From: a virus
Lineage: Duplodnaviria > Heunggongvirae > Uroviricota > Caudoviricetes
Reading direction: 5' to 3' (one strand)
IMG/VR virus record: IMGVR_UViG_648861009_000010
DNA: 42,228 nt
The position numbers were made by a program, and so were the translations under genes. The notes below the pieces were generated by a model. The model ran no database searches. It saw nothing but the letters and a program-made list of their open reading frames with translations, and was not told where the DNA came from. This document shows positions 4,267-30,095 of the stretch, in pieces (the first letter of the stretch is position 1; every line of letters starts with the position of its first letter).

Positions 4267-4754
4267 CGTTTATATGCATAACAACCTCCTGAACAGTAAA
4301 GCATTACGCATAATAAACCATTTATGGTTTTTGTTACTTTAACATCGTCAATTCCCTGTTTTTCATGCCGAGAATAAAGCTCACCTTTTACATGACTCTG
4401 AAGAAACAAACAGTGAAGAGCAGGTTGAATACCGCACCATTTAATGGCGCGGTAGCAGTCAAATAGAGAAATAAACACAAAAACAAAAACAACAGGAACA
4501 GCAAAATCCAACAGACTTCCCACATCCCACACGCGTGGATCAAAACCTCCCCACCACGGCATGTTGATACGTTTCCCTTTCCCAAACTTTTCTATCCAGC
4601 GATATTCTGCCTGGGTGTGTTCACGCGCAATGAAGAACGTACAACCGGCTATCGCACCGTAAGCCCAGTTTCCGGTAAAAATACCAACCAGTACCTGAGC
4701 CACAAAAGCGCAAAGCGAGTGAAGAAATGGAGTGACATCAATGCTCTTAATCAT
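4242..4754 (-). CDS. Integral membrane protein of unknown function between tailspike and lysis genes
   Basis: 170 aa; two long hydrophobic segments, Cys-rich C-terminus; start overlaps the tailspike stop. Confidence 0.55.
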   Translation of the reverse strand: MIKSIDVTPFLHSLCAFVAQVLVGIFTGNWAYGAIAGCTFFIAREHTQAEYRWIEKFGKGKRINMPWWGGFDPRVWDVGSLLDFAVPVVFVFVFISLFDCYRAIKWCGIQPALHCLFLQSHVKGELYSRHEKQGIDDVKVTKTINGLLCVMLYCSGGCYAYKRWKTCQLN

Positions 4755-7193
4755 GAAACTTCCCCATTGGTTGAAAATATGGCTCCTCCAACGCCAAGTG
4801 TATTTCGTGTTGTGCTCAACCTCAGAGGGCTGGAGTCAGAATTAGAATATCCTGTAGCAGAAATAAAAGATCCTCCACTAATAGTCAACTGCGGAACATC
4901 GGCTATATCTGAATAAGTTCTGTCAGCAACAGTATTATTTATAGCCACATATGATCCAAAAAAACTTCTTATTGTTTGGTTTTTAACTTTACTTCCTTCA
5001 ATGGTTATCCTACTACCACAGTCGGCAATAAATCCTGAATCTGCATCCAGCGTTGCATTCATAAAAGAAGCTTCAGATCTCTCTACATCAATCCATCTAA
5101 TATCTTTTGTGGGATTTGCACCAAATACATGACAAATATTAGAGTTAAACCTTACACCATCTTGGAGGTGCATTAATTTTTTTATATCTGTACCCCATAG
5201 CCTTGGAAAATTAACAGATGCTCCTGCATGGCAATCAAATCCCAGCTCAGCCCCTGAGATATCTACAGCCTTTCCTGAAATAACAGCACCAGTGTCTGCA
5301 TTAACGGCTGTTCCACAATTGCGCATATCATTACCAGCAACATCAACGCAACCCGCACCATCAATACGCACACCAAGTGCACATCCATAAAAACCTTTTT
5401 CAATATTTGGTTCAAGGACTTTACCACTTGTTTCTGCATCACTTTCTTCAACGTCATGTCGTCTTGCATCAACATATGCTGTATGAATGCAGGTTAATCC
5501 ACGATATGAGCAATGTATAGTTTTATGGTCGCGTATATTAACATTTGAACCATCTCTTACATTCCATCCTATATAACAATAGCTTGCACTTGACCCCTGA
5601 AAATCTGNNNNNNNNNNNNNNNNNNNNNNNNNNNNNNNNNNNNNNNNNNNNNNNNNNNNNNNNNNNNNNNNNNNNNNNNNNNNNNNNNNNNNNNNNNNNN
5701 NNNNNNNNNNNNNNNNNNNNNNNNNNNNNNNNNNNNNNNNNNNNNNNNATCCACGATATGAGCAATGTATAGTTTTATGGTCGCGTATATTAACATTTGA
5801 ACCATCTCTTACATTCCATCCTATATAACAATAGCTTGCACTTGACCCCTGAAAATCTGCTTTTAACATTATAAATACAATTAACTGACGCAACCGTACT
5901 CTCTGTGCACCGTTCAAACTTGCTTACAGGCATTGATGCCTTGACATTATTTACCAGTTGCAGGGAAGAGTATCTGCTATAAGAAAAATCACATACGTAA
6001 TACCCTTCTGGCATATATGCAGCAACACTTTCCTCATCAGGAGCACATCCGGTATGATATGCACTAATTTTTGCACCAAAACTACCATGAATTCCAACGT
6101 AGAACTTTCGAGCACCTGAATACGGATAGAAATTAAGTTCAGCTTTTTGAGTTACAATAAATGCACAAACATCGCTATCATCTCTATTTTCTTCGATCTG
6201 AATAGCAAATACAGGACTTTTTGCTGCATCGCAAATGTAAAATAAATACTTGTATTCGTAATACGTTCTAACGATTTTAGTAAACAAACGAGTGTCAGAG
6301 AAAACCACTGAGTCTTCTGATGTTATTTTAATCCAAGACAAATCAACACCTGAACTGAATTCAATTTGATAGTTGATAATATGCCCGGTCTTAATTCTTA
6401 TTTCGCAGAAAGCATTACCACCATCCCACATAGGTCTCATTGACTGGGCTGCAATGATTGCATCTTTGAGTGTAGGGTAATCACCCCATTCGCCAACAGT
6501 AATAACAAAAGTATAATATGAGTTAAAAACAGCGGCATTTTTGCCTTTGGATATCAACTCCTTAATCATAAAAATATTATCTTCGTAATCACAAGGAGAA
6601 ATTATATCCCTCATTTTGCTTTGAAATGTTCGTTGTCTTGCCCCGCTTCCTGACGGTATAAACCAACCAAAACCACCAACAACCCCGGCGATTGCAGCAT
6701 CGACATAATTACGCATTGAGCGATTATTTACAGCGTCCTGCTCAAATGATGGATCTGCAAGGTTAGAAATTTTGTTTTGCTTTGCATCGTAATATTTTGC
6801 AAGCAAAGATGGTTTCATCAATGCACGTCTGAACCACCCAAAACATCGCTGGATCAGCATCGTCAGGTAGTCAAATGCATCTTCATGAACTTCGGGGAAA
6901 AATTTTCCCTGATTGCGAAGATCAGTCTCCTGCACCACATCAAGCACACGCTCTATCGTAATTCGCCAGCCAGCAGCAAGCGGCGACGGGAGAACCACTT
7001 CACCGCCACTATAAGTGCCCGCTCCAGTTACCTTATAACCGGTATCCAGAACCAATTCTGTTACGTTCCCGTTCAGGTCAGACACCTGAACAACCAGGTC
7101 GGTTTTTTTGAAAATACGGAAGGTATACGGAAATGATGTCGTAACGCCGTTACCGGTGTATTCGTTGTGGTCAACTTCGGTTGAGACCGTCAT
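4751..7193 (-). CDS. Tailspike: T7-fibre-type N-terminal adaptor domain plus C-terminal parallel beta-helix domain; reading frame broken by gap and frame change (ORFs 5790-7193 and 4751-5917)
   Basis: N-terminus MTVSTEVDHNEYTGNGVTTSFPYTFRIFKK resembles podovirus tail fibre/tailspike anchor domains; C-terminal part has beta-helix-like repeats (NCGTAVNADTGAVISGKAVDISGAELGFDCHAGAS); SD GGAG 7 nt before ATG at 7193; 111-bp exact duplication flanks the N-run. Confidence 0.6.
5608..5748. other. Assembly gap (141 N) inside the tailspike, flanked by 111-bp exact duplicates (5497-5607 and 5749-5859)
   Basis: Identical sequence atccacgatatgagcaatgtatag...ccctgaaaatctg on both sides of the N-run. Confidence 0.95.
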
Positions 7194-8771: not shown

Positions 8772-8939
8772 ATGACAGCGTTGAAAAATCGTACTCAGCA
8801 CAATGAACAAGCCAAGCAATGCTGGGATGTCATTGGAAAAGTTATGCTTGGCCGCGCAAGCAAAGAGCGCGACAAGGATATGGTTTACCAGACAGGAACA
8901 TCTTTCAGCGACTTCAAGGCGGCATTTCGCTCCAAATAG
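8772..8939 (+). CDS. Small protein (55 aa), unknown function, first gene of an AT-rich moron
   Basis: ATG with SD AAAGGAGG at 6-nt spacing; not in the ORF track (<60 aa); MTALKNRTQHNEQAKQCWDVIGKVMLGRASKERDKDMVYQTGTSFSDFKAAFRSK. Confidence 0.55.
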   Translation: MTALKNRTQHNEQAKQCWDVIGKVMLGRASKERDKDMVYQTGTSFSDFKAAFRSK

Positions 8940-8959
8940 AAGCACATCAGGAGTTTTCC

Positions 8960-9400
8960 TTGAAGTTTAACATTAGAATATCTAATAGTTTTCTACATGG
9001 GGAAAGCAACACCCCTTTCGCTGTAGACGGACCTTTCCTTACTGATGATGAAATAAAAATCATACAAAGTTTTTTAGAGGATGTTGCCAATGGAAGGGCG
9101 CTTGTTGGAAAAAACAAGCCCTCGTGGGTTGATGATAACCATGATAAAATTCCCGGCTCAGACAATTATGAGCAAGAGAATTATTGGCATTATCATTGTG
9201 GGCCAACATGGTATCCAAACACATTTAAGAATTATACCATTAACTTAAATTTCAACCCTGGCGGAAGGCATTCTAATGAATGCATTCATTATGCAAAAAA
9301 TGATAATGAAATTGTCATTGTTGGATTTTCAAGAGAACACATACCTTTCCTTTCATCAGATGGAAACAACAATCCGCTTTTTAATGATGAAGAAGAATAG
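8960..9400 (+). CDS. Unknown 147-aa protein with His/Cys-containing motifs, second gene of the AT-rich moron
   Basis: Open frame with no internal Met; likely TTG start at 8960 with SD AGGAG 6 nt upstream (the ATG at 8819 overlaps ORF 8772 and lacks an RBS); motifs YWHYHCGP and HSNECIHYAK; all four Arg codons are AGA/AGG; strong terminator follows. Confidence 0.55.
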   Translation: MKFNIRISNSFLHGESNTPFAVDGPFLTDDEIKIIQSFLEDVANGRALVGKNKPSWVDDNHDKIPGSDNYEQENYWHYHCGPTWYPNTFKNYTINLNFNPGGRHSNECIHYAKNDNEIVIVGFSREHIPFLSSDGNNNPLFNDEEE

Positions 9401-9423
9401 CCCGCGCTGCGGGCTTTTTTGTG
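9401..9423 (+). terminator. Rho-independent terminator ending the moron
   Basis: gcccgcg-ctg-cgggc hairpin followed by TTTTTTGTG. Confidence 0.8.
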
Positions 9424-9493
9424 GGCGAAACAAAAGTCAGTGCTACACTCATTGACGCCACATTGAGGTGGCTTATAGATGGAAATTTCACAA

Positions 9494-9654
9494 TGAAAAA
9501 AGCATTTGCTGCACTGTTCGTTTTGTTGTCTCTGGTAGCTTCAACTCAGGCCTTTGCCGGTCGTTGTCAGCACGACAGCGACACTGCTGCTGACGGCTCC
9601 CGCTGCGGTGGGCGTTCTGCGGATTCCCGCCCGGGTGGCGGTGGCATTCGTTAA
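9494..9654 (+). CDS. Possible small secreted peptide (53 aa)
   Basis: Classic signal peptide MKKAFAALFVLLSLVASTQAFA then Gly/Arg/Asp-rich tail; weak RBS; the 3' end overlaps a hairpin that looks like the terminator of the convergent lipoprotein gene. Confidence 0.35.
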
Positions 9655-9677
9655 AAACAAGGCCGCGAAAGCGGCCT

Positions 9678-9689
9678 GTGACATGTCAC
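9678..9689. promoter_or_regulatory. 12-bp perfect palindrome GTGACATGTCAC (copy 1 of 3)
   Basis: Exact 12-mer, also at 27819-27830 and 30084-30095; sits at a convergent gene junction. Confidence 0.45.
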
Positions 9690-9692
9690 GAC

Positions 9693-10106
9693 TTATAAAG
9701 ATGACTGATATTTTACAACTCTGTTCATGGCATCTTTTTTCACCGAGCTGATATCAGTTCTTATTTTGGCTTCGTCATTACTGCTTATCATGCTATTAAT
9801 TTTTTGCACTGACATGCCGTTTCTTTCAGCCATTGCACATACAGCAGCATCGTATGAAGAACTCGCTGCGATGGATATCACCTTGTTACACTCAAACACA
9901 GCACCTTCAGCAATATCAGATGCCGATGAGGCTGGCTTGGTATAAGTCTTGACGTAGTGATCAATACAACTATCCTTCGCCGTCTTGGCAAGAGAAAAAT
10001 CCATTTTAACTTTGTCGCAATATGCCTTATCAACACCGTCATAAACATCATAGGATGTCGAGCAAGCGGATATCAAAAATACCGATAACAGCAATAATTC
10101 CTTCAT
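9693..10106 (-). CDS. AT-rich phage lipoprotein; candidate superinfection-exclusion / lysogenic-conversion moron
   Basis: 137 aa; lipobox LISAC after a hydrophobic signal; SD AGGA 6 nt upstream; terminal gene after the ejection-protein genes; uses AGA for Arg. Confidence 0.6.
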   Translation of the reverse strand: MKELLLLSVFLISACSTSYDVYDGVDKAYCDKVKMDFSLAKTAKDSCIDHYVKTYTKPASSASDIAEGAVFECNKVISIAASSSYDAAVCAMAERNGMSVQKINSMISSNDEAKIRTDISSVKKDAMNRVVKYQSSL

Positions 10107-10115
10107 TGTTGTTCC

Positions 10116-12590
10116 TTATTGCGGAGTGACATCCTGAGGTCGCCACCAGTATGTCTGGTTAAACTCTTTCTTCGAACGTTGCTCCATTTTACGCAAATAG
10201 CCTGGTGAAAAATACTCCTGCATCTGATTAAAGATCATGTGATCGAGAGCCGCCTTCAAGTACCAGAGATTCGCACCAGGCATCAAACCTTTCCCAAGCT
10301 TAACCAGATCACCACCAGTCTGCTCATTCTTCCCTTCCACAGCATTTAACGGTATGCCCTGAGCAATCTTCACTACGTCATCAACCAGACCAGCTACCGG
10401 GCCAAGCATCGACGCTAGTGCGCCGCTCCCGTACCTGGTATGGTCAGAGAAAAGAAAATCACCATACAACCCTGCCCCACCACCTTTTAAAAATGCATTT
10501 ATCCAGAATTTAACCATGTTGTCACCGGTCATTTCTTTTGGATTTCTCCCATTAATAAGATCAGTAATCTGCATGGAAAGAGCACCAAGCATGGTTGTGC
10601 TTGCTAAAAACGTTGCTATATATGCCGCACGCCCACCAGCAGACGGCATCCCCATAGCTCTATGCCAGTGACGCATAACTACCGAGATAGGGAACGATTT
10701 AAACAGGAAAACACTTCTCGTTAATTCACCTTTCCATGTTCCACGCTGAAGACCAGACCCTACGAACATCTGTTCACGTGCGCCCGGTGTAATAACAGCC
10801 ATATCAACTTCTTCAGTTACGGCACCGAGCAGTTTACGCATTGCCTCAAATTTCACGCGTTCAGGCTCACCAAGATGTTTAACTGCTGAATCAGGGATAC
10901 GCATAATGCTTTCCGGTGTCAGCATCGTATTATTACCGTTCCCCCAGTCCTCCTGTTGCGCCAGCTTCCATACGCTCCAGTCTGTGTCAGTAATCCCTTT
11001 GCTTTTCAGGATACGAAAATCAGAGTCATCGAGGCTACGAAGGTCTGGTGTCCGTGACACTACTTCTCCCAGGCTTCCCATCATGGTTACGCCATAGGCG
11101 CGCTTGTGCGCATCTGACCATGCTGTAAGCCCACTGGCACGCATTACCGCCGTTGCCGCCCAACGAGACACAGACGGCCCCATATTATCCATCGCCCAGC
11201 GGTTAACGCTGCCAAGTAGAGATTCCATCGCCAGGCCAGCGCGGCGCGCCCGCGCAAGTTCTGTACGGTTCGTTGGGTCCATAGCTTCAAGCTGGTTGCG
11301 AAATAACTGGTTCATTGGAAGGTTGGTAACCTTCGCAGACAGATACATGGTTCCAAGATCAGAGAACGATGACAGCAACGCGGATCCGAGTCTGCTGGCA
11401 ACCAGCCAGTTGCGGATATTGTCAGACCATCGCGCGATGTGCGGATTCGCTACAGGCTGTGTTTTTCCGGAAATAAAGTTGTACAAGTTCTCTGTTTTGT
11501 TCGCCAGACGCTCGACGCTACCGGTTTTACTCGGGTTAGCTGTTGCCGTTTCTGCCTTAACCTGATCAAGAAGGGAGCGGAAAACATGATCGGGGTTTGG
11601 GCCATATGTTTCCACCAGCGCAATATCTTTACTGATACCTTCCAGGTGACCGACCATGATTTCCCATAGAGAGCGATCGCCATAAAGTTGCTGATATTGC
11701 AGATAGGAATCTGCATCTTTGAAATGTATCTGTCGTGATGCATTACCACGGTTAGCACGTGCTCCGGAAATTCGCATTCCGGTGTCAGTAAGCTTATTCA
11801 GCCCACCAGTAGCGATCGTGTTATAAGCCTCTCCAAGAAATGCAGACAACTCGGCATCGTTCATCAGTTGTCCATCGGCTCGGGTATAATATTTGCGATC
11901 CAGCTTACCTATAACATCGCTAACCCATTTATCTTTTGATACCGCCCCAACCTTTTCCATAGAATGATGTTGAGGGATCCCCCAGTTTTCGAGATAGCCA
12001 ATGTCCCCACCAGCATCATTAAACCGGCGGCGAAGTAGATCTGTCACTTCTCTCCACGCCTTAGCACCTTTTCTTGCTTTAGCATTGCCAGTATTTTGCC
12101 CTCGCATTTCATATACCAGGTCACGCACGCCCGCTTCATCTTCAAACAGGCCAAAAAAGCGAGGATCAACTGCTTCAAATGCCTCCTGCAATTGACTCAA
12201 TGCATAATCACGAGTGGCTTTTGTTCTGGATTCAACAGAGAGGAAATTCGATTTACCGTCTGCATTAAAAGCAATAGTACGGTTAAGAGCGCCAAGTTTC
12301 CCATCAGCCCCTTGATAGTTATTGATAAATTTATCCAATCTCTGACGTGCGGCTATAGTGAGGGCCACACGACGTTTCTTTAATGCCGCTTCTCGCTGTA
12401 ATTCTTCAGATGCCAATTGTGCTGCACGATACAACCGTTCTGATTCGGAAAGTTGTCGCCACGACATCTGGTCATCACGAGCAATGGAGCGCATATTTCG
12501 ATAAATGCGGTCTTCAATGTTCTGTATTTCTCGCGCCGTTAACGTGCGCTGCGCCGCCTGCTGGACCGCTTGTATACATTCCTGTCTCAT
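10116..12590 (-). CDS. Large internal virion / ejection protein (T7 gp16-like position)
   Basis: 824-aa ORF in the structural gene run, tightly packed with neighbours; function by position only. Confidence 0.5.
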   Translation of the reverse strand: MRQECIQAVQQAAQRTLTAREIQNIEDRIYRNMRSIARDDQMSWRQLSESERLYRAAQLASEELQREAALKKRRVALTIAARQRLDKFINNYQGADGKLGALNRTIAFNADGKSNFLSVESRTKATRDYALSQLQEAFEAVDPRFFGLFEDEAGVRDLVYEMRGQNTGNAKARKGAKAWREVTDLLRRRFNDAGGDIGYLENWGIPQHHSMEKVGAVSKDKWVSDVIGKLDRKYYTRADGQLMNDAELSAFLGEAYNTIATGGLNKLTDTGMRISGARANRGNASRQIHFKDADSYLQYQQLYGDRSLWEIMVGHLEGISKDIALVETYGPNPDHVFRSLLDQVKAETATANPSKTGSVERLANKTENLYNFISGKTQPVANPHIARWSDNIRNWLVASRLGSALLSSFSDLGTMYLSAKVTNLPMNQLFRNQLEAMDPTNRTELARARRAGLAMESLLGSVNRWAMDNMGPSVSRWAATAVMRASGLTAWSDAHKRAYGVTMMGSLGEVVSRTPDLRSLDDSDFRILKSKGITDTDWSVWKLAQQEDWGNGNNTMLTPESIMRIPDSAVKHLGEPERVKFEAMRKLLGAVTEEVDMAVITPGAREQMFVGSGLQRGTWKGELTRSVFLFKSFPISVVMRHWHRAMGMPSAGGRAAYIATFLASTTMLGALSMQITDLINGRNPKEMTGDNMVKFWINAFLKGGGAGLYGDFLFSDHTRYGSGALASMLGPVAGLVDDVVKIAQGIPLNAVEGKNEQTGGDLVKLGKGLMPGANLWYLKAALDHMIFNQMQEYFSPGYLRKMEQRSKKEFNQTYWWRPQDVTPQ

Positions 12591-14398: not shown

Positions 14399-16908
14399 TG
14401 CGGAATATCTCCGGAGAATCTCTGACGCTTCTGTGTCAGATTAAGAACAACGGGAGAACCATCATCTTTCAGCAGATAACCAGTACCAAGTTTCACCAGG
14501 TACTGACTATCGCCGTAACTTTGCAAACCATACTGACCAGGCGGTGTTTTTATCCCGGAGCCGACAACTTGTTCATTCCAAGCCTGATTAACCTGCTTAT
14601 CGAATTGCTCTGCAGACATTCCCCACGGCAAAAGGACATTCCCCATTCCGTTATAGTCATGCACGCCACCTGTAGCTACGTTAACAGCCTGTTTCCAGAC
14701 ATCATTGTCAATTTCGCCTGATACCACGCCTTTTTTCGCCATCACACCAGCGTAATAGTCCTTTGCGATCTCGTATGCCATTGATGCCCCCTGAGCATCA
14801 CCAGCAAATGCATCCTTCACCATGTCAGAAAACTCAAGGCGGAGATCAGCATCTTTAGGCATCGGAATACCTTTCGCGTCATCAGTACCTTTACGAGCCG
14901 CCGCGCCAGCAAGAATTGTCTGCGCAGCGGTTTCAGGAGACACGGAAACATCCGGATTAAACCAGTTTTTTTCTGCCAAAATACCACCTGGCTTATCCAT
15001 CAGTATCCCGGCAACGGCAGCAGATGGAGCGTTGGCACTGATCTGCTGTAGTGCTGACATATACACCTGCCCACCACCAGTGCTCTGCCTGATGGTATCG
15101 AGATATGCTGCCTGTTGGGAAACGGGCGCATCACGAAAGAAAACACCGATCTGATTGGCCTCGTCTTTGGAAAAGAACGTCAGTGGAGTGCCATATGACT
15201 TAGCAAGGTCACTGACCTGAGTAGCACGCAAGGCAACGCTCTGTCCAAAGTTATCCTTATTGCTCATGTCGATAGGCTTTGCCTGTCCGGCGGCAAGAGA
15301 GAACTGTACAGGATCAGCCTGTCGCTGCTTTATCACCTGACTTGCAGCCGACACAACGTTGTCATAAAGAGCGGCTCGTGCCGCATAACCCTCCCCTGTC
15401 TCACCAGTATCCGGGCGTAATTGCTCAACATATGCTGTAATGCTGCTTGTCGGCATGTTGCGGAAAGAGCCTATATACTGTCCGGCGATTTGCGTATTTC
15501 TGAACTCGGTATATCGCAGGTTTCCTTCTCTGACTCCATAAGCTGCAATAAAATCAGCCTCACCAGGTGGGTTAGGAAATTCAACGCCACGCATATACGC
15601 AGCTGTCGCATCGCGAACCTGGCTGTCAATCATCGTTTTATATTCAGCCTGCTGCTGCCGACGCAGTTGATCCGCCTGTCGCATAAAACTTGCCTGCGCC
15701 TCAGGAGATGCCGCATCGAATGCTGCATTACCGGTATAGCGTTTGGTGTTGGTTGGAATTGTTGATAAACCAAGTGCTGCACTGACACCAGCAGTTAACT
15801 GCTGATCACTGTATGGCTGGCTACCGTTCTCATGATGGATAATGGCTGCACAAAGCGCCTTCAGGGTATCAGGATTAGATGCATCGAGAGGCTCATCAGC
15901 AGAAACGCCAAGTTGTTCGCACACTGCTTTGATATACGACATAGTGTCATTTTTATCAGTAGGCGGTGCCCAGCGATTAATTATCTCGCTGACGGTATCA
16001 ATACCCTGCCTCTGATACGACATCAGGTTCCGCCCTAATGCACGAATCCCGTGTTCAGGTGTTTCGAATTTAGCAAATCGACCATCATCACCGGTCTGGC
16101 CTACCCACGGATTAGTTTTGCTGTATTCGAGATTTCCTGGGTTATTGTTGCGTATGCCACGGGCACGCTCGGAAGAGTCACTATCTGCTACAGCACGGCG
16201 AGCTCCAGCAGCAGTATCACTTAACTCGCCATTACTTTGGATGAATGCGGTCGCATTGTTTGCCGACCACTGGGACAATGCAGCATCAGCAACCTTCTCT
16301 TTAAACTCGATTTTCTTGGCCTGGATTTGCTCGTCACTCCAGCCATGTGCAATGCCGTAATCCTCAATTTGCTGGAAAGTTTGCTTATTAGCCAATACGT
16401 ATGCGGCGTTGTCGCCATACAATGCTGCGGCATTTTTACCATTGTTCAGCAGCGTAACCTGAAACTGGCCTTCTTCGTAGGCATTTATTTGCCCTATCTC
16501 GTGCCGCCCTGCCTGCGTAGTGAACTGAATGCGCTGCTGCTGCGCCTGCTGCATGAAAGCATTACGAGCCTGTTCATCCGGCAGCGACATAGCCAGTTGT
16601 TCGACCTGAGCATCAAACTGCTGCGTATACTCCTGACCTTTTCCAATAGCATTTTTCCCTTTCAGGTTAAGCAAACCTGTTTCAGGGTTATTCAGCAGAT
16701 CGCTGCCTGTCTGACTGAGTTTAAGGGATGCCTCCTGAACCAAGGCAATATTGGCACGCTGTTTTTCCTGACCAAAAACATCAATAGCCTCTGCCCCTGC
16801 CCGAACAAAAGCATCACCAATACCTGGCTGAGAAAACGTCTGCAAGCCTGCTGACTGAACTCCACGGCTCTGAACCTGACGGCCGGATACTGTTGGTACG
16901 ACTGGCAT
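14395..16908 (-). CDS. Internal virion protein (T7 gp15-like position) with a conserved NNPGN-containing domain
   Basis: ATG at 16908 overlapping the upstream stop (TAATG) with SD GGAGG (the 862-aa track ORF starts further upstream); domain RGIRNNNPGNLEYSKTNPWVGQTGDDGRFAKFETPEHGIRALGRNLMSYQRQGIDTVSEII. Confidence 0.5.
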   Translation of the reverse strand: MPVVPTVSGRQVQSRGVQSAGLQTFSQPGIGDAFVRAGAEAIDVFGQEKQRANIALVQEASLKLSQTGSDLLNNPETGLLNLKGKNAIGKGQEYTQQFDAQVEQLAMSLPDEQARNAFMQQAQQQRIQFTTQAGRHEIGQINAYEEGQFQVTLLNNGKNAAALYGDNAAYVLANKQTFQQIEDYGIAHGWSDEQIQAKKIEFKEKVADAALSQWSANNATAFIQSNGELSDTAAGARRAVADSDSSERARGIRNNNPGNLEYSKTNPWVGQTGDDGRFAKFETPEHGIRALGRNLMSYQRQGIDTVSEIINRWAPPTDKNDTMSYIKAVCEQLGVSADEPLDASNPDTLKALCAAIIHHENGSQPYSDQQLTAGVSAALGLSTIPTNTKRYTGNAAFDAASPEAQASFMRQADQLRRQQQAEYKTMIDSQVRDATAAYMRGVEFPNPPGEADFIAAYGVREGNLRYTEFRNTQIAGQYIGSFRNMPTSSITAYVEQLRPDTGETGEGYAARAALYDNVVSAASQVIKQRQADPVQFSLAAGQAKPIDMSNKDNFGQSVALRATQVSDLAKSYGTPLTFFSKDEANQIGVFFRDAPVSQQAAYLDTIRQSTGGGQVYMSALQQISANAPSAAVAGILMDKPGGILAEKNWFNPDVSVSPETAAQTILAGAAARKGTDDAKGIPMPKDADLRLEFSDMVKDAFAGDAQGASMAYEIAKDYYAGVMAKKGVVSGEIDNDVWKQAVNVATGGVHDYNGMGNVLLPWGMSAEQFDKQVNQAWNEQVVGSGIKTPPGQYGLQSYGDSQYLVKLGTGYLLKDDGSPVVLNLTQKRQRFSGDIPQ

Positions 16909-17453
16909 TATAATCCTCCGGGTAATCTGGTTCCTGCTGCTGCCCCGATTGGCGCAGGGGTGCTTTGAGTAAACGGACTCCACGTCCCACCAAACATCTG
17001 GTACGCACCGTATGCCTTCAGAGGCGCAGTGAGCAATGTTGTTACTGCTCCCACATTCCCCTGTTTACGGGCTGAACTGGCTTCTGCTTTATAGTTGGCA
17101 GCCTGAACCTGATAACCGTAAGCCTCGCGTTGCGCGTTATTCACCGTCGTCAGAGAATCAAGAGCGCCAAACTGGGCAGTGTCGCCAAATATATCCAGCG
17201 CGTTACCTGTAGATAAATCAGCGCCGGTAGCCCCCATTGTCGCCGCCTGTGTACCAAGCCGCTGTCGGGTCTCTCTGCGCCGTTGCTCAGCTTCAGCGTT
17301 ACCTCTGTTTATTGCATCATTTGCCTGAGCTGTGGCTATATCTGCGTTCGCTTCTGCAACCTTCGAGGCATACTTTCCCTGTTGGTACTGGGTGTATGCC
17401 TGAATGCCACTCATGGCGAGCATTGCGCCACCAGCAATAACCGGATCGCACAT
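16908..17453 (-). CDS. Internal virion protein (T7 gp14-like position)
   Basis: 181-aa ORF, Ala/Gln-rich, translationally coupled to neighbours. Confidence 0.45.
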   Translation of the reverse strand: MCDPVIAGGAMLAMSGIQAYTQYQQGKYASKVAEANADIATAQANDAINRGNAEAEQRRRETRQRLGTQAATMGATGADLSTGNALDIFGDTAQFGALDSLTTVNNAQREAYGYQVQAANYKAEASSARKQGNVGAVTTLLTAPLKAYGAYQMFGGTWSPFTQSTPAPIGAAAGTRLPGGL

Positions 17454-27167: not shown

Positions 27168-27244
27168 GTGGCATTAGCTCAGTTGGACAGAGCAACCGCC
27201 TTCTAAGCGGTTGGTCGCAGGTTCGAATCCTGCATGCCACGCCA
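27168..27244 (+). tRNA. tRNA-Arg (anticodon UCU), phage-encoded
   Basis: Cloverleaf folded by hand: acceptor GTGGCAT/ATGCCAC, D-stem GCTC/GAGC, anticodon stem ACCGC/GCGGT with loop CTTCTAA, T-arm GCAGG-TTCGAAT-CCTGC, discriminator G, encoded CCA. Confidence 0.85.
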
Positions 27245-27442: not shown

Positions 27443-27814
27443 ATGAACGACCAGCAAATCGAAAAAGAAATCGTTGAGAAAGGCAAAACGGCACCGCGCG
27501 TTACGCCAGACCATATCGAAGGCATTATTGCTCAGGAGGCATATTTCACAGCAGAAGATGGTGCCTTTGGCAAAGCCATAAAAGCGAAACATACTGGCGG
27601 AGAGGTAAACTACCAGCCGCACGAATCACTTTCTCTGCTGACGTTCTGCGTCCTGGTGCTGCGCAACGGCTTCACCGTCACCGGAGAGAGCGCCTGTGCA
27701 AGCCAGGAAAACTTTGATGCAGAAATTGGTCGGAAGATTGCCCGGCAGAATGCTGTAAACAAAATCTGGATGCTCGAAGGTTACTTGCTGAAGCAGAAGC
27801 TAAGCGAGCAATAA
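27443..27814 (+). CDS. Hypothetical phage protein (possibly N4 Gp49 / Sf6 gp66-like family)
   Basis: 123-aa ORF with SD AAGGTGAG; the only plus-strand gene in the packaging/head region; family assignment is recollection only. Confidence 0.5.
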   Translation: MNDQQIEKEIVEKGKTAPRVTPDHIEGIIAQEAYFTAEDGAFGKAIKAKHTGGEVNYQPHESLSLLTFCVLVLRNGFTVTGESACASQENFDAEIGRKIARQNAVNKIWMLEGYLLKQKLSEQ

Positions 27815-27818
27815 CACC

Positions 27819-27830
27819 GTGACATGTCAC
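27819..27830. promoter_or_regulatory. 12-bp perfect palindrome GTGACATGTCAC (copy 2 of 3)
   Basis: Exact 12-mer right after the stop of ORF 27443-27814. Confidence 0.45.
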
Positions 27831-30083: not shown

Positions 30084-30095
30084 GTGACATGTCAC
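30084..30095. promoter_or_regulatory. 12-bp perfect palindrome GTGACATGTCAC (copy 3 of 3)
   Basis: Exact 12-mer about 110 bp upstream of the terS start, overlapping the stop of the preceding gene. Confidence 0.45.

Follow-up and report, generated by a model that had tools for sequence, protein, structure and literature searches.

Introduction

SieA of phage P22 is encoded between the ejection gene 16 and the tailspike gene 9, at a place that varies among the relatives of P22, and it blocks DNA injection, with escape mutations found in the ejection proteins gp16 and gp20 (PMC10883804). The protein is polytopic, resides in the inner membrane, has the motif FxRYPxEAxxFNK on its cytoplasmic side and is made by the prophage (PMC10883804). 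Here we report on the gene of a small predicted lipoprotein which occupies the equivalent position in IMG/VR record IMGVR_UViG_648861009_000010, an Escherichia coli prophage of the genus Uetakevirus (epsilon15/phiV10-like); the complete stretch of 42,228 nucleotides (nt) that was analyzed is called the window in the following. The lipoprotein gene lies 9 nt after the last internal virion gene, and a Bro-N antirepressor region and the tailspike are found beyond it. SieA and the window protein have in common that they are envelope proteins encoded at a variable locus, after the ejection genes and before an immI-like/antirepressor region and the tailspike. The window protein, however, is a predicted lipoprotein with a soluble helical domain, has no transmembrane (TM) helices, does not contain the SieA motif and shows no homology to SieA.

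Llp of phage T5 and the Cor proteins are small phage lipoproteins as well, for which a periplasm-facing position at the outer membrane is likewise predicted and whose genes lie at the end of a late or structural region. A preliminary description of the window had likened the lipoprotein to them. Such a kinship is not borne out, since no above-threshold family match is obtained in Pfam, NCBIfam or PADLOC. With Llp (PDB 8a60) the alignment is confined to the signal peptide (8a60_B, E = 2), and for Cor of the phi80/N15/HK022 type there is no match at E <= 1 in the Pfam, NCBIfam, PHROGs and PADLOC scans. Spackle of phage T4 is likewise a small secreted periplasmic phage protein and has been proposed to act on the cell-wall penetration of superinfecting phages. 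To our knowledge T4 Spackle is not lipidated, unlike the predicted window lipoprotein, and the match to its family PF25676 (E = 0.82, 10.7 bits against a cutoff of 27) includes the signal-peptide region. Finally, the Rap1a family (PF18602) resembles the lipoprotein in being small periplasmic accessory cargo, and a family member lies beside a soluble homologue of the lipoprotein in Klebsiella prophages. Homology is not detectable in this case either: the window lipoprotein has no Pfam match, its hhalign comparison with the Rap1a-family neighbour from Klebsiella gave a probability of 0.1% (E = 0.62), and no cognate effector is known for it.

The lipoprotein and its gene

The lipoprotein gene (9693..10106, minus strand) codes for 137 amino acids (aa) and gives a full-length match to the hidden Markov model (HMM) of phrog_8691 (residues 1-137 of 137, E = 1.6e-91). 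This family has no functional annotation in PHROGs; membership names the family and explains nothing. The protein starts with the sequence MKELLLLSVFLISAC, a signal peptide ending in the lipobox ISAC, which fits the pattern [LVI][ASTVI][GAS]C and is followed after Cys15 by a Ser at position +2. By its sequence the product is thus predicted to be a lipoprotein and a substrate of signal peptidase II (SPase II). A Ser at +2 directs E. coli lipoproteins to the outer membrane, and according to this sorting rule the lipid anchor of the protein should sit in the inner leaflet of that membrane. The mature lipoprotein would have about 122 aa and contains no hydrophobic TM segment.

The AlphaFold2 (AF2) model of the protein is confident (pLDDT 87.6) and all-helical, with long helices at residues 24-55 and 74-96. 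Across clades down to 19-27% identity only Cys30, Cys47, Cys73, Cys90 and Ser99 are invariant besides Met1, the cysteines keeping a spacing of 17/26/17. Because 30 + 90 equals 47 + 73, the two Cys pairs would be suitably aligned to hold an antiparallel helical hairpin together, and the protein probably contains two disulfides, 30-90 and 47-73.

Six nucleotides ahead of the ATG there is a Shine-Dalgarno sequence AAGGA (10117-10113), which overlaps the TAA stop codon (10118-10116, minus strand) of the preceding gene for an 824-aa protein. The distance of 9 nt between the two genes is identical in 26 of the 26 IMG/VR loci that carry the lipoprotein. With a GC content of 39.4% the gene is clearly more AT-rich than the window (47.8%) and the three ejection genes (48.6-51.2%); all three Arg codons are AGA and ATA is used four times. 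For pairs of lipoproteins at 95-96% amino-acid identity we obtained a dN of 0.016-0.025 and a dS of 0.25-0.49, that is a ratio of nonsynonymous to synonymous substitutions (dN/dS) of about 0.05-0.07.

The 824-aa internal virion/ejection protein (phrog_684; 10116..12590, minus strand) is encoded by the last conserved gene of the late operon. On the same strand the operon comprises, in the direction of transcription, the gene of a T7_gp14-family protein (16908-17453) and those of the internal virion proteins of 862 aa (phrog_992), 600 aa (phrog_1145) and 824 aa. In related prophages the first large ejection protein carries an SLT domain, which is not detectable with Pfam in the 862-aa protein of the window. 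Given the T7_gp14-family protein, the internal virion proteins and the SLT domain in the relatives, it is fair to label this part of the operon an ejection-gene cluster. The preliminary description had correctly recognized a 137-aa lipoprotein reading frame with lipobox, ribosome-binding site and AGA codons, and had also rightly called it an AT-rich terminal gene after the ejection proteins, as it is the last cistron of the minus-strand structural operon.

A variable slot at the end of the late operon

Positions 9380-10130 and the adjoining regions have matches in the Uetakevirus Escherichia phages phiv142-3, HEMP4, phiV10 and others, and prophages with 100% identity are present in complete E. 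coli chromosomes, for example that of UMNK88 (NC_017641), in which the lipoprotein gene is UMNK88_RS15525. When the lipoprotein locus is compared with other prophages, homology ends on one side at, or a few bases from, the point where translation of the 824-aa gene stops and, on the other side, at the perfect 12-bp palindrome GTGACATGTCAC (9678..9689). The variable slot extends accordingly from the stop codon of the 824-aa gene, its left boundary, to the conserved palindrome at its right boundary and the adjoining late terminator. Among 5,426 complete E. coli genomes the 824-aa gene is present in 319, and 22 of these 319 carry the lipoprotein.

The lipoprotein gene is one of at least seven unrelated genes for small envelope proteins that are found as alleles of this slot. 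A 46-aa protein with two TM segments is encoded in phiV10 (p21) and SPN1S (SPN1S_0020), the 64-aa gp18, overlapping gp17, in epsilon15 and the 103-aa gp19 in Tyrion. The slot of phiv142-3, BUCT711 and of Cronobacter and E. coli prophages (L055/L056) holds the gene of a 98-aa protein with four TM segments; L055/L056 stand for a group of 252 records with ~88% identity, and the 98-aa allele is the one present in most E. coli prophages. One Cronobacter prophage has a 66-aa TM protein and another one (L021) an empty slot, while in Klebsiella prophages a Rap1a-family protein (PF18602) is followed by a soluble lipoprotein homologue of 134 aa. All slot products examined are small membrane or periplasmic proteins, most of the alleles other than the lipoprotein encode TM proteins of the inner-membrane type, and most slot genes are AT-rich. 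We conclude that the lipoprotein gene does not belong to the core of the phage but is accessory (a moron), being one of the alleles which this hypervariable slot can hold.

Relatives of the lipoprotein

Searches for named relatives were negative. There was no above-threshold match of the lipoprotein in Pfam, NCBIfam or PADLOC, the noise consisting of linker histone, Spackle and CC_3452, and in PADLOC-DB 2.0 no family was hit at E <= 1 by the lipoprotein, the neighbouring 53-aa secreted peptide described below, or their neighbours. A sequence-profile search of the PDB returned designed helical proteins and signal-peptide matches only, and for the helical model an informative structural relative was not found. 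Neither tblastn against 50,697 phage records nor a search for related loci, made with the alignment of close homologues in contigs of one genome per species, detected the lipoprotein. Likewise, our literature searches retrieved no paper on the lipoprotein family, on the 'transmembrane anchored protein', as the secreted peptide is annotated, or on the palindrome.

Relatives could be collected at the protein level. The family is tiny: in an exhaustive HMM search of 1.84 billion representatives seven proteins reached E <= 0.001, of which six are relatives and the seventh, with 3,870 aa, is matched weakly and locally. Word-indexed searches yielded 17 and 27 proteins; the third search of this type, for which the profile had been widened, contributed the Klebsiella clade and a homologue on plasmid-like contigs, again without a named relative. 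The family extends over E. coli, Enterobacter, Citrobacter, Cedecea and Providencia/Morganellaceae and includes a soluble clade from Klebsiella. A lipobox (LSGC, IVGC, LFGC or ISAC) is kept in every clade except that of Klebsiella, where the signal is of the signal peptidase I (SPase I) type. The 22 lipoprotein-bearing genomes among the 5,426 of E. coli belong to pathogenic as well as commensal strains from pigs, poultry and humans.

Some of the relatives are found in the same genetic context. A homologue from Cedecea (55% identity) is encoded 2 nt past the last ejection gene, and one from a metagenomic phage (26% identity) after the same ejection cluster with the gene of one secreted 191-aa protein intervening. 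The 134-aa protein of Klebsiella is a non-lipidated homologue of periplasmic type, as judged from hhalign (probability 97.4%, E = 1e-11) and the same Cys spacing, and it also matches phrog_8691 (E = 2.9e-5). In the two Klebsiella prophages in question (L023, 6238-7094; L054, 7550-8405) the slot consists of the gene of the Rap1a-family protein (PF18602, 48 bits at a cutoff of 27.7) and then that of the 134-aa homologue with its SPase I signal.

Other relatives are found outside phages. The Providencia homologue P0077 (27% identity; 29.8% GC) resides in islands of the integrase/AlpA/DUF3987 type, within a 2.3-kb block which is common to three otherwise different islands (L008, L009 and L010; 7095-9363). 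In each island this block immediately adjoins different defence genes, namely Gabija-like OLD-TOPRIM and UvrD, type I restriction-modification (R-M), type III-like R-M, SIR2 and a DEAD/MZB helicase. A further homologue of 142 aa (P0104) comes from short contigs (L050-L053) with tandem repeats of ~3.7 and ~6.2 kb, which suggests that they are small plasmids; one contig type also encodes a pentapeptide-repeat protein and the other one a GNVR-domain protein. A distribution over these three kinds of mobile elements is typical of genes which confer a self-contained protective trait.

That the gene exists was known beforehand, since it is annotated as hypothetical and its family is already a PHROG. 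New are the slot and its boundaries, the soluble Klebsiella homologue next to a Rap1a-family protein, and the homologues in defence islands and plasmid-like contigs. The lipoprotein is hence worth following as a possible new family, although the kind of system is known and the specialist would not be surprised.

Possible function of the lipoprotein

Among the functions considered, we tentatively regard the exclusion of incoming phages at the level of the envelope, to the benefit of the infected or lysogenic cell, as the likeliest job of the lipoprotein. An envelope role is the best reading of the context because the slot is hypervariable and always holds genes of small envelope proteins, and exclusion is favoured because sieA of P22 occupies the equivalent position. 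For exclusion also speaks the distant homologue beside Gabija-like, R-M and SIR2 genes. Superinfection exclusion had been put forward in the preliminary description as well, and of that proposal the envelope role is retained as the best fit to the slot context whereas membership in the Llp/Cor type fails.

With its anchor in the outer membrane (inner leaflet), the lipoprotein would face the periplasm with a domain that forms a compact helical bundle and is probably stapled by the two disulfides. From this place it may interfere with genome delivery after adsorption, by blocking either the formation or the working of the trans-envelope conduit made of the ejection proteins of the incoming phage or an outer-membrane component needed by that conduit. 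A helical domain on an outer-membrane anchor would be well placed against a conduit of T7_gp14-like and larger internal proteins, and in function the lipoprotein could correspond to P22 SieA, whose gene takes up the equivalent slot.

Several observations weigh against this proposal. Neither in sequence nor in fold was a relation of the lipoprotein to a known exclusion protein found, and the literature contains no experiment on any member of the family. The guilt by association with defence genes stems from one distant clade (27% identity), and the Rap1a-family neighbour in Klebsiella, of the kind that gives immunity to effectors of the type VI secretion system (T6SS), points to another kind of protection. 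The main weakness of this and of any other model of lysogen defence is, however, expression from the prophage. The gap of 9 nt is too short for a promoter of the lipoprotein's own, a consensus scan of 700 bp upstream on the coding strand found no sigma-70 match, and the synonymous sites over the final 900 nt of the gene for the 824-aa protein are not unusually conserved and reveal no clear embedded signal. As the sequence stands, the lipoprotein gene would be read as the last cistron of the late operon, and its expression may be late-lytic only, which fits a prophage-expressed defence less well.

A more far-reaching form of the exclusion proposal, which we consider doubtful, is that phrog_8691 together with the soluble Klebsiella, the Providencia-island and the plasmid relatives constitutes a new class of envelope-level anti-phage proteins and that the slot is a dedicated site for the exchange of exclusion cassettes, bounded by the conserved palindrome. 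The periplasmic protein would then target the ejection conduit or the cell-wall-penetrating step of incoming short-tailed phages and would be an outer-membrane-anchored functional counterpart of SieA and Spackle common to prophages, defence islands and plasmids. Should the lipoprotein indeed exclude phages, a structurally new family would join the few envelope exclusion proteins of Gram-negative bacteria which are understood (Llp, Cor, SieA, Imm and Spackle), and phages of the epsilon15/phiV10 type would keep a dedicated, rapidly exchanged slot where P22 keeps sieA. It would also bear on host-range prediction for O-antigen-specific phages in E. coli O157/Salmonella detection and biocontrol, and on how thousands of 'hypothetical' small envelope proteins of prophages are annotated.

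Instead of excluding phages the lipoprotein could be a periplasmic immunity protein, directed against peptidoglycan-hydrolase effectors of the T6SS, bacteriocins or the cell-wall hydrolase of its own or an incoming phage, and would then be an orphan immunity gene on mobile elements which benefits the host. Periplasmic immunity proteins are typically small, helical and disulfide-bonded, and the lipoprotein is predicted to be just that. The pairing of the soluble Klebsiella homologue with a Rap1a-family protein in the slot and the spread of the family over prophages, islands and plasmids are in line with such a role, as is the SLT domain in an ejection protein of related phages. The 862-aa protein of the window has no SLT domain detectable by Pfam. 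Profile similarity to Rap1a (hhalign E = 0.62) or to immunity families of Pfam and NCBIfam is missing, however, no effector gene is seen nearby, and the match to T4 Spackle is far below threshold (10.7 bits versus 27). We therefore hold this explanation to be unlikely.

Equally unlikely in our view is an accessory of the lytic cycle that is made late together with the virion proteins only and has no role in the lysogen, be it in the timing of lysis, in protecting the envelope of the producing cell or in the handling of ejection proteins. The tight coupling to the late operon would be explained well: the gap of 9 nt and the overlap of Shine-Dalgarno sequence and stop codon are common to all 26 loci (26 of 26), the corresponding distance in Cedecea is 2 nt, gp18 overlaps gp17 in epsilon15, and there is no upstream sigma-70 consensus match. 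Yet the content of the slot is replaced or, in the Cronobacter prophage L021, absent, while the flanking genes are 87-100% identical, and since slot content is swapped or lost with the flanks retained, the lytic cycle cannot depend on any one of the slot proteins. Homologues outside phages do not fit either, and holins, an endolysin and Rz/Rz1 spanins of the phage's own are encoded elsewhere. Should the lipoprotein nevertheless be a late-expressed accessory without phenotype, it would be an ordinary moron.

Receptor masking in the manner of Llp and Cor would require that the lipoprotein binds an outer-membrane protein from the periplasmic side and locks it in a form unusable for phages, so that superinfecting phages are excluded and the progeny is spared from inactivation on cell debris. 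A lipoprotein of the outer-membrane type (Ser at +2) at the end of the late operon would suit this purpose, and late-lytic expression would match the role of Llp (10.64898/2026.03.26.714494). We nevertheless judge receptor masking, which the preliminary description had assumed, to be quite unlikely. In the literature on phiV10 these phages bind the O-antigen via the tailspike, and no protein receptor, be it of the FhuA type or another, is known for the group of the window phage. The lipoprotein gene is also not adjacent to the receptor-binding gene, as the tailspike-like open reading frames (ORFs; 4751-7193) are ~2.5 kb away across five plus-strand genes. Furthermore, there is no relation to Llp or Cor in sequence or fold, and most other alleles of the slot encode TM proteins of the inner-membrane type.

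Very unlikely is a factor of lysogenic conversion that serves host fitness or virulence rather than phage conflict (lambda Bor-like serum resistance, adhesion or stress tolerance): an AT-rich moron for a predicted outer-membrane lipoprotein in pathogenic and commensal E. coli of pigs, poultry and humans would agree with it, but neither Bor/Iss nor any other family of virulence lipoproteins is matched, the gene is rare (22 of 5,426 genomes) and the distant homologues are found in defence-rich and not in virulence-rich contexts. An o-spanin (Rz1-like protein) is excluded, since the lysis cassette of the phage, elsewhere in the window, has its own Rz (DUF2514, 2460-2942) with an embedded Rz1-like lipoprotein frame (LALAGC); the match of the lipoprotein to phrog_6073 covers residues 1-18 only (E = 0.13).

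The secreted peptide

Convergent with the lipoprotein gene there is a gene for a secreted peptide of 53 aa (9493..9654, plus strand), which belongs to phrog_14503 and is named 'transmembrane anchored protein' at NCBI. The SPase I signal peptide is composed of MKK, AFAALFVLLSLVA and STQAFA|G; cleavage at the predicted site AFA|G would leave a mature peptide of about 31 aa with a single Cys-x12-Cys loop and the invariant core C-x12-C-GGRSxDSRPGG. This mature core, CQHDSDTAADGSRCGGRSADSRPGG, is nearly invariant in E. coli, Klebsiella, Cronobacter and Pectobacterium (dN 0.04-0.1, dS saturated), and the signal sequence varies freely with its hydrophobicity kept. From the low dN compared to dS we conclude that both the lipoprotein and the peptide are encoded by genuine genes under purifying selection. 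AF2 models only the signal helix of the peptide with confidence, the mature part being of low confidence. Besides 422 of the 5,426 complete E. coli genomes, the peptide gene is found in Klebsiella, Cronobacter, Salmonella, Pectobacterium and Dickeya.

The preliminary description had noticed the convergent ORF and its signal peptide and had set the start of the region at 9421, which is the GTG of a 77-aa extended reading in the same frame. Its doubt about the ORF was unfounded, as the gene is conserved. The doubt came from an apparent overlap with the terminator hairpin of the lipoprotein gene. An overlap does exist with the complement of the U-tract (9659-9652), but the stop codon of the peptide gene (9652-9654) lies 5 nt outside the hairpin stem (9660-9677).

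The peptide gene moves as a compact cassette, which comprises a terminator on the upstream side, a weak promoter-like stretch in which a small hairpin recurs, the ORF itself and the terminator of the phage backbone. The left edge is formed by the intrinsic terminator AGCCCGC-GCT-GCGGGCT followed by TTTTTT (9399..9415, plus strand), which ends the upstream plus-strand unit. A promoter-like sequence TTGACG-N16-TATAGA (9452..9479, plus strand) ahead of the peptide gene was found by inspection and is weak, below the threshold of the scanner; its spacer contains a small hairpin GCCAC..GTGGC (9455-9475). A hairpin 20-35 nt 5′ of the peptide ATG (GCCAC..GTGGC, CCGC..GCGG or CACCAC..GUGGU) recurs in the diverged loci L018, L019, L020 and L023, with modest folding z-scores of -1.5 to -1.9. 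In Rfam the region gives a sub-threshold Trp-leader match at the upstream terminator only. A small RNA instead of a protein was considered for this region and rejected in view of the protein-coding substitution pattern. An Excalibur- or EF-hand-like calcium loop, of which DxDxxxDG..C is reminiscent, was likewise dropped, there being no Pfam support and only a low-confidence model of the mature peptide.

We also considered whether lipoprotein and peptide form a two-gene module. The peptide gene lies beside the lipoprotein gene in about 14 of the 26 lipoprotein loci, and two more loci keep a 5′-truncated remnant. It also adjoins five other slot alleles and is present in the non-Uetakevirus phage TL-2011b and in the tail-gene region of a Pectobacterium prophage. 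The module was therefore rejected, and because the two genes are adjacent in only ~14 of 26 loci we regard the peptide gene as an independently mobile moron and not as the partner of the lipoprotein. In the two loci with a remnant (L047 and L048, ~6456-6540) the peptide codons are present only from DSDTAADG onward and are fused to unrelated sequence. These truncated genes show that recent recombination has occurred inside the peptide cassette.

Terminators, palindrome and further features of the window

The late operon ends at an intrinsic terminator (9652..9677, minus strand) composed of the stem–loop AGGCCGC-TTTC-GCGGCCT (9677-9660) and the tract TGTTTTTA (9659-9652). phiV10 and related phages share this terminator, and in their annotation it follows the last of the late genes. 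The hairpin, formerly described as the terminator of the lipoprotein, is thus a late-operon terminator of the whole phage group and belongs to the phage backbone and not to the lipoprotein cassette.

In epsilon15, phiV10, SPN1S, Tyrion, BUCT711, Cronobacter prophages and TL-2011b an exact copy of the palindrome is retained where the slot gene ends. The window itself contains three exact copies (9678-9689, 27819-27830 and 30084-30095), compared to an estimated ~0.003 expected by chance. They are located at the end of the late operon, after a plus-strand ORF of 123 aa and after a Cys-rich ORF of 113 aa upstream of the terminase genes; each copy lies just past a stop codon and, in the direction of transcription, 0-40 nt ahead of the hairpin of an intrinsic terminator. 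The palindrome may be the site of a regulator, part of a composite terminator or a recombination boundary.

The 123-aa ORF (27443-27814) has its own terminator and is located 3′ of a tRNA-Arg gene (27168-27244, plus strand) which is found between the large terminase and portal genes. The anticodon of this tRNA is TCT and reads AGA, a rare codon that is used by the AT-rich morons of the window including the lipoprotein gene. In the tailspike region (4751-7193, minus strand) there are two overlapping ORFs, 5790-7193 (467 aa) and 4751-5917 (388 aa, TTG start), neither of which has a match in Pfam; UMNK88 has a single 675-aa gene in this place, and the split could be due to a different tailspike module or to a frameshift. 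Between the Bro-N antirepressor gene and the peptide gene there is an AT-rich ORF of phrog_5954 (8819-9400, plus strand; 38.7% GC), the RefSeq version of which is shorter (146 aa). In other prophages a YafO-family toxin gene takes the place of this ORF.

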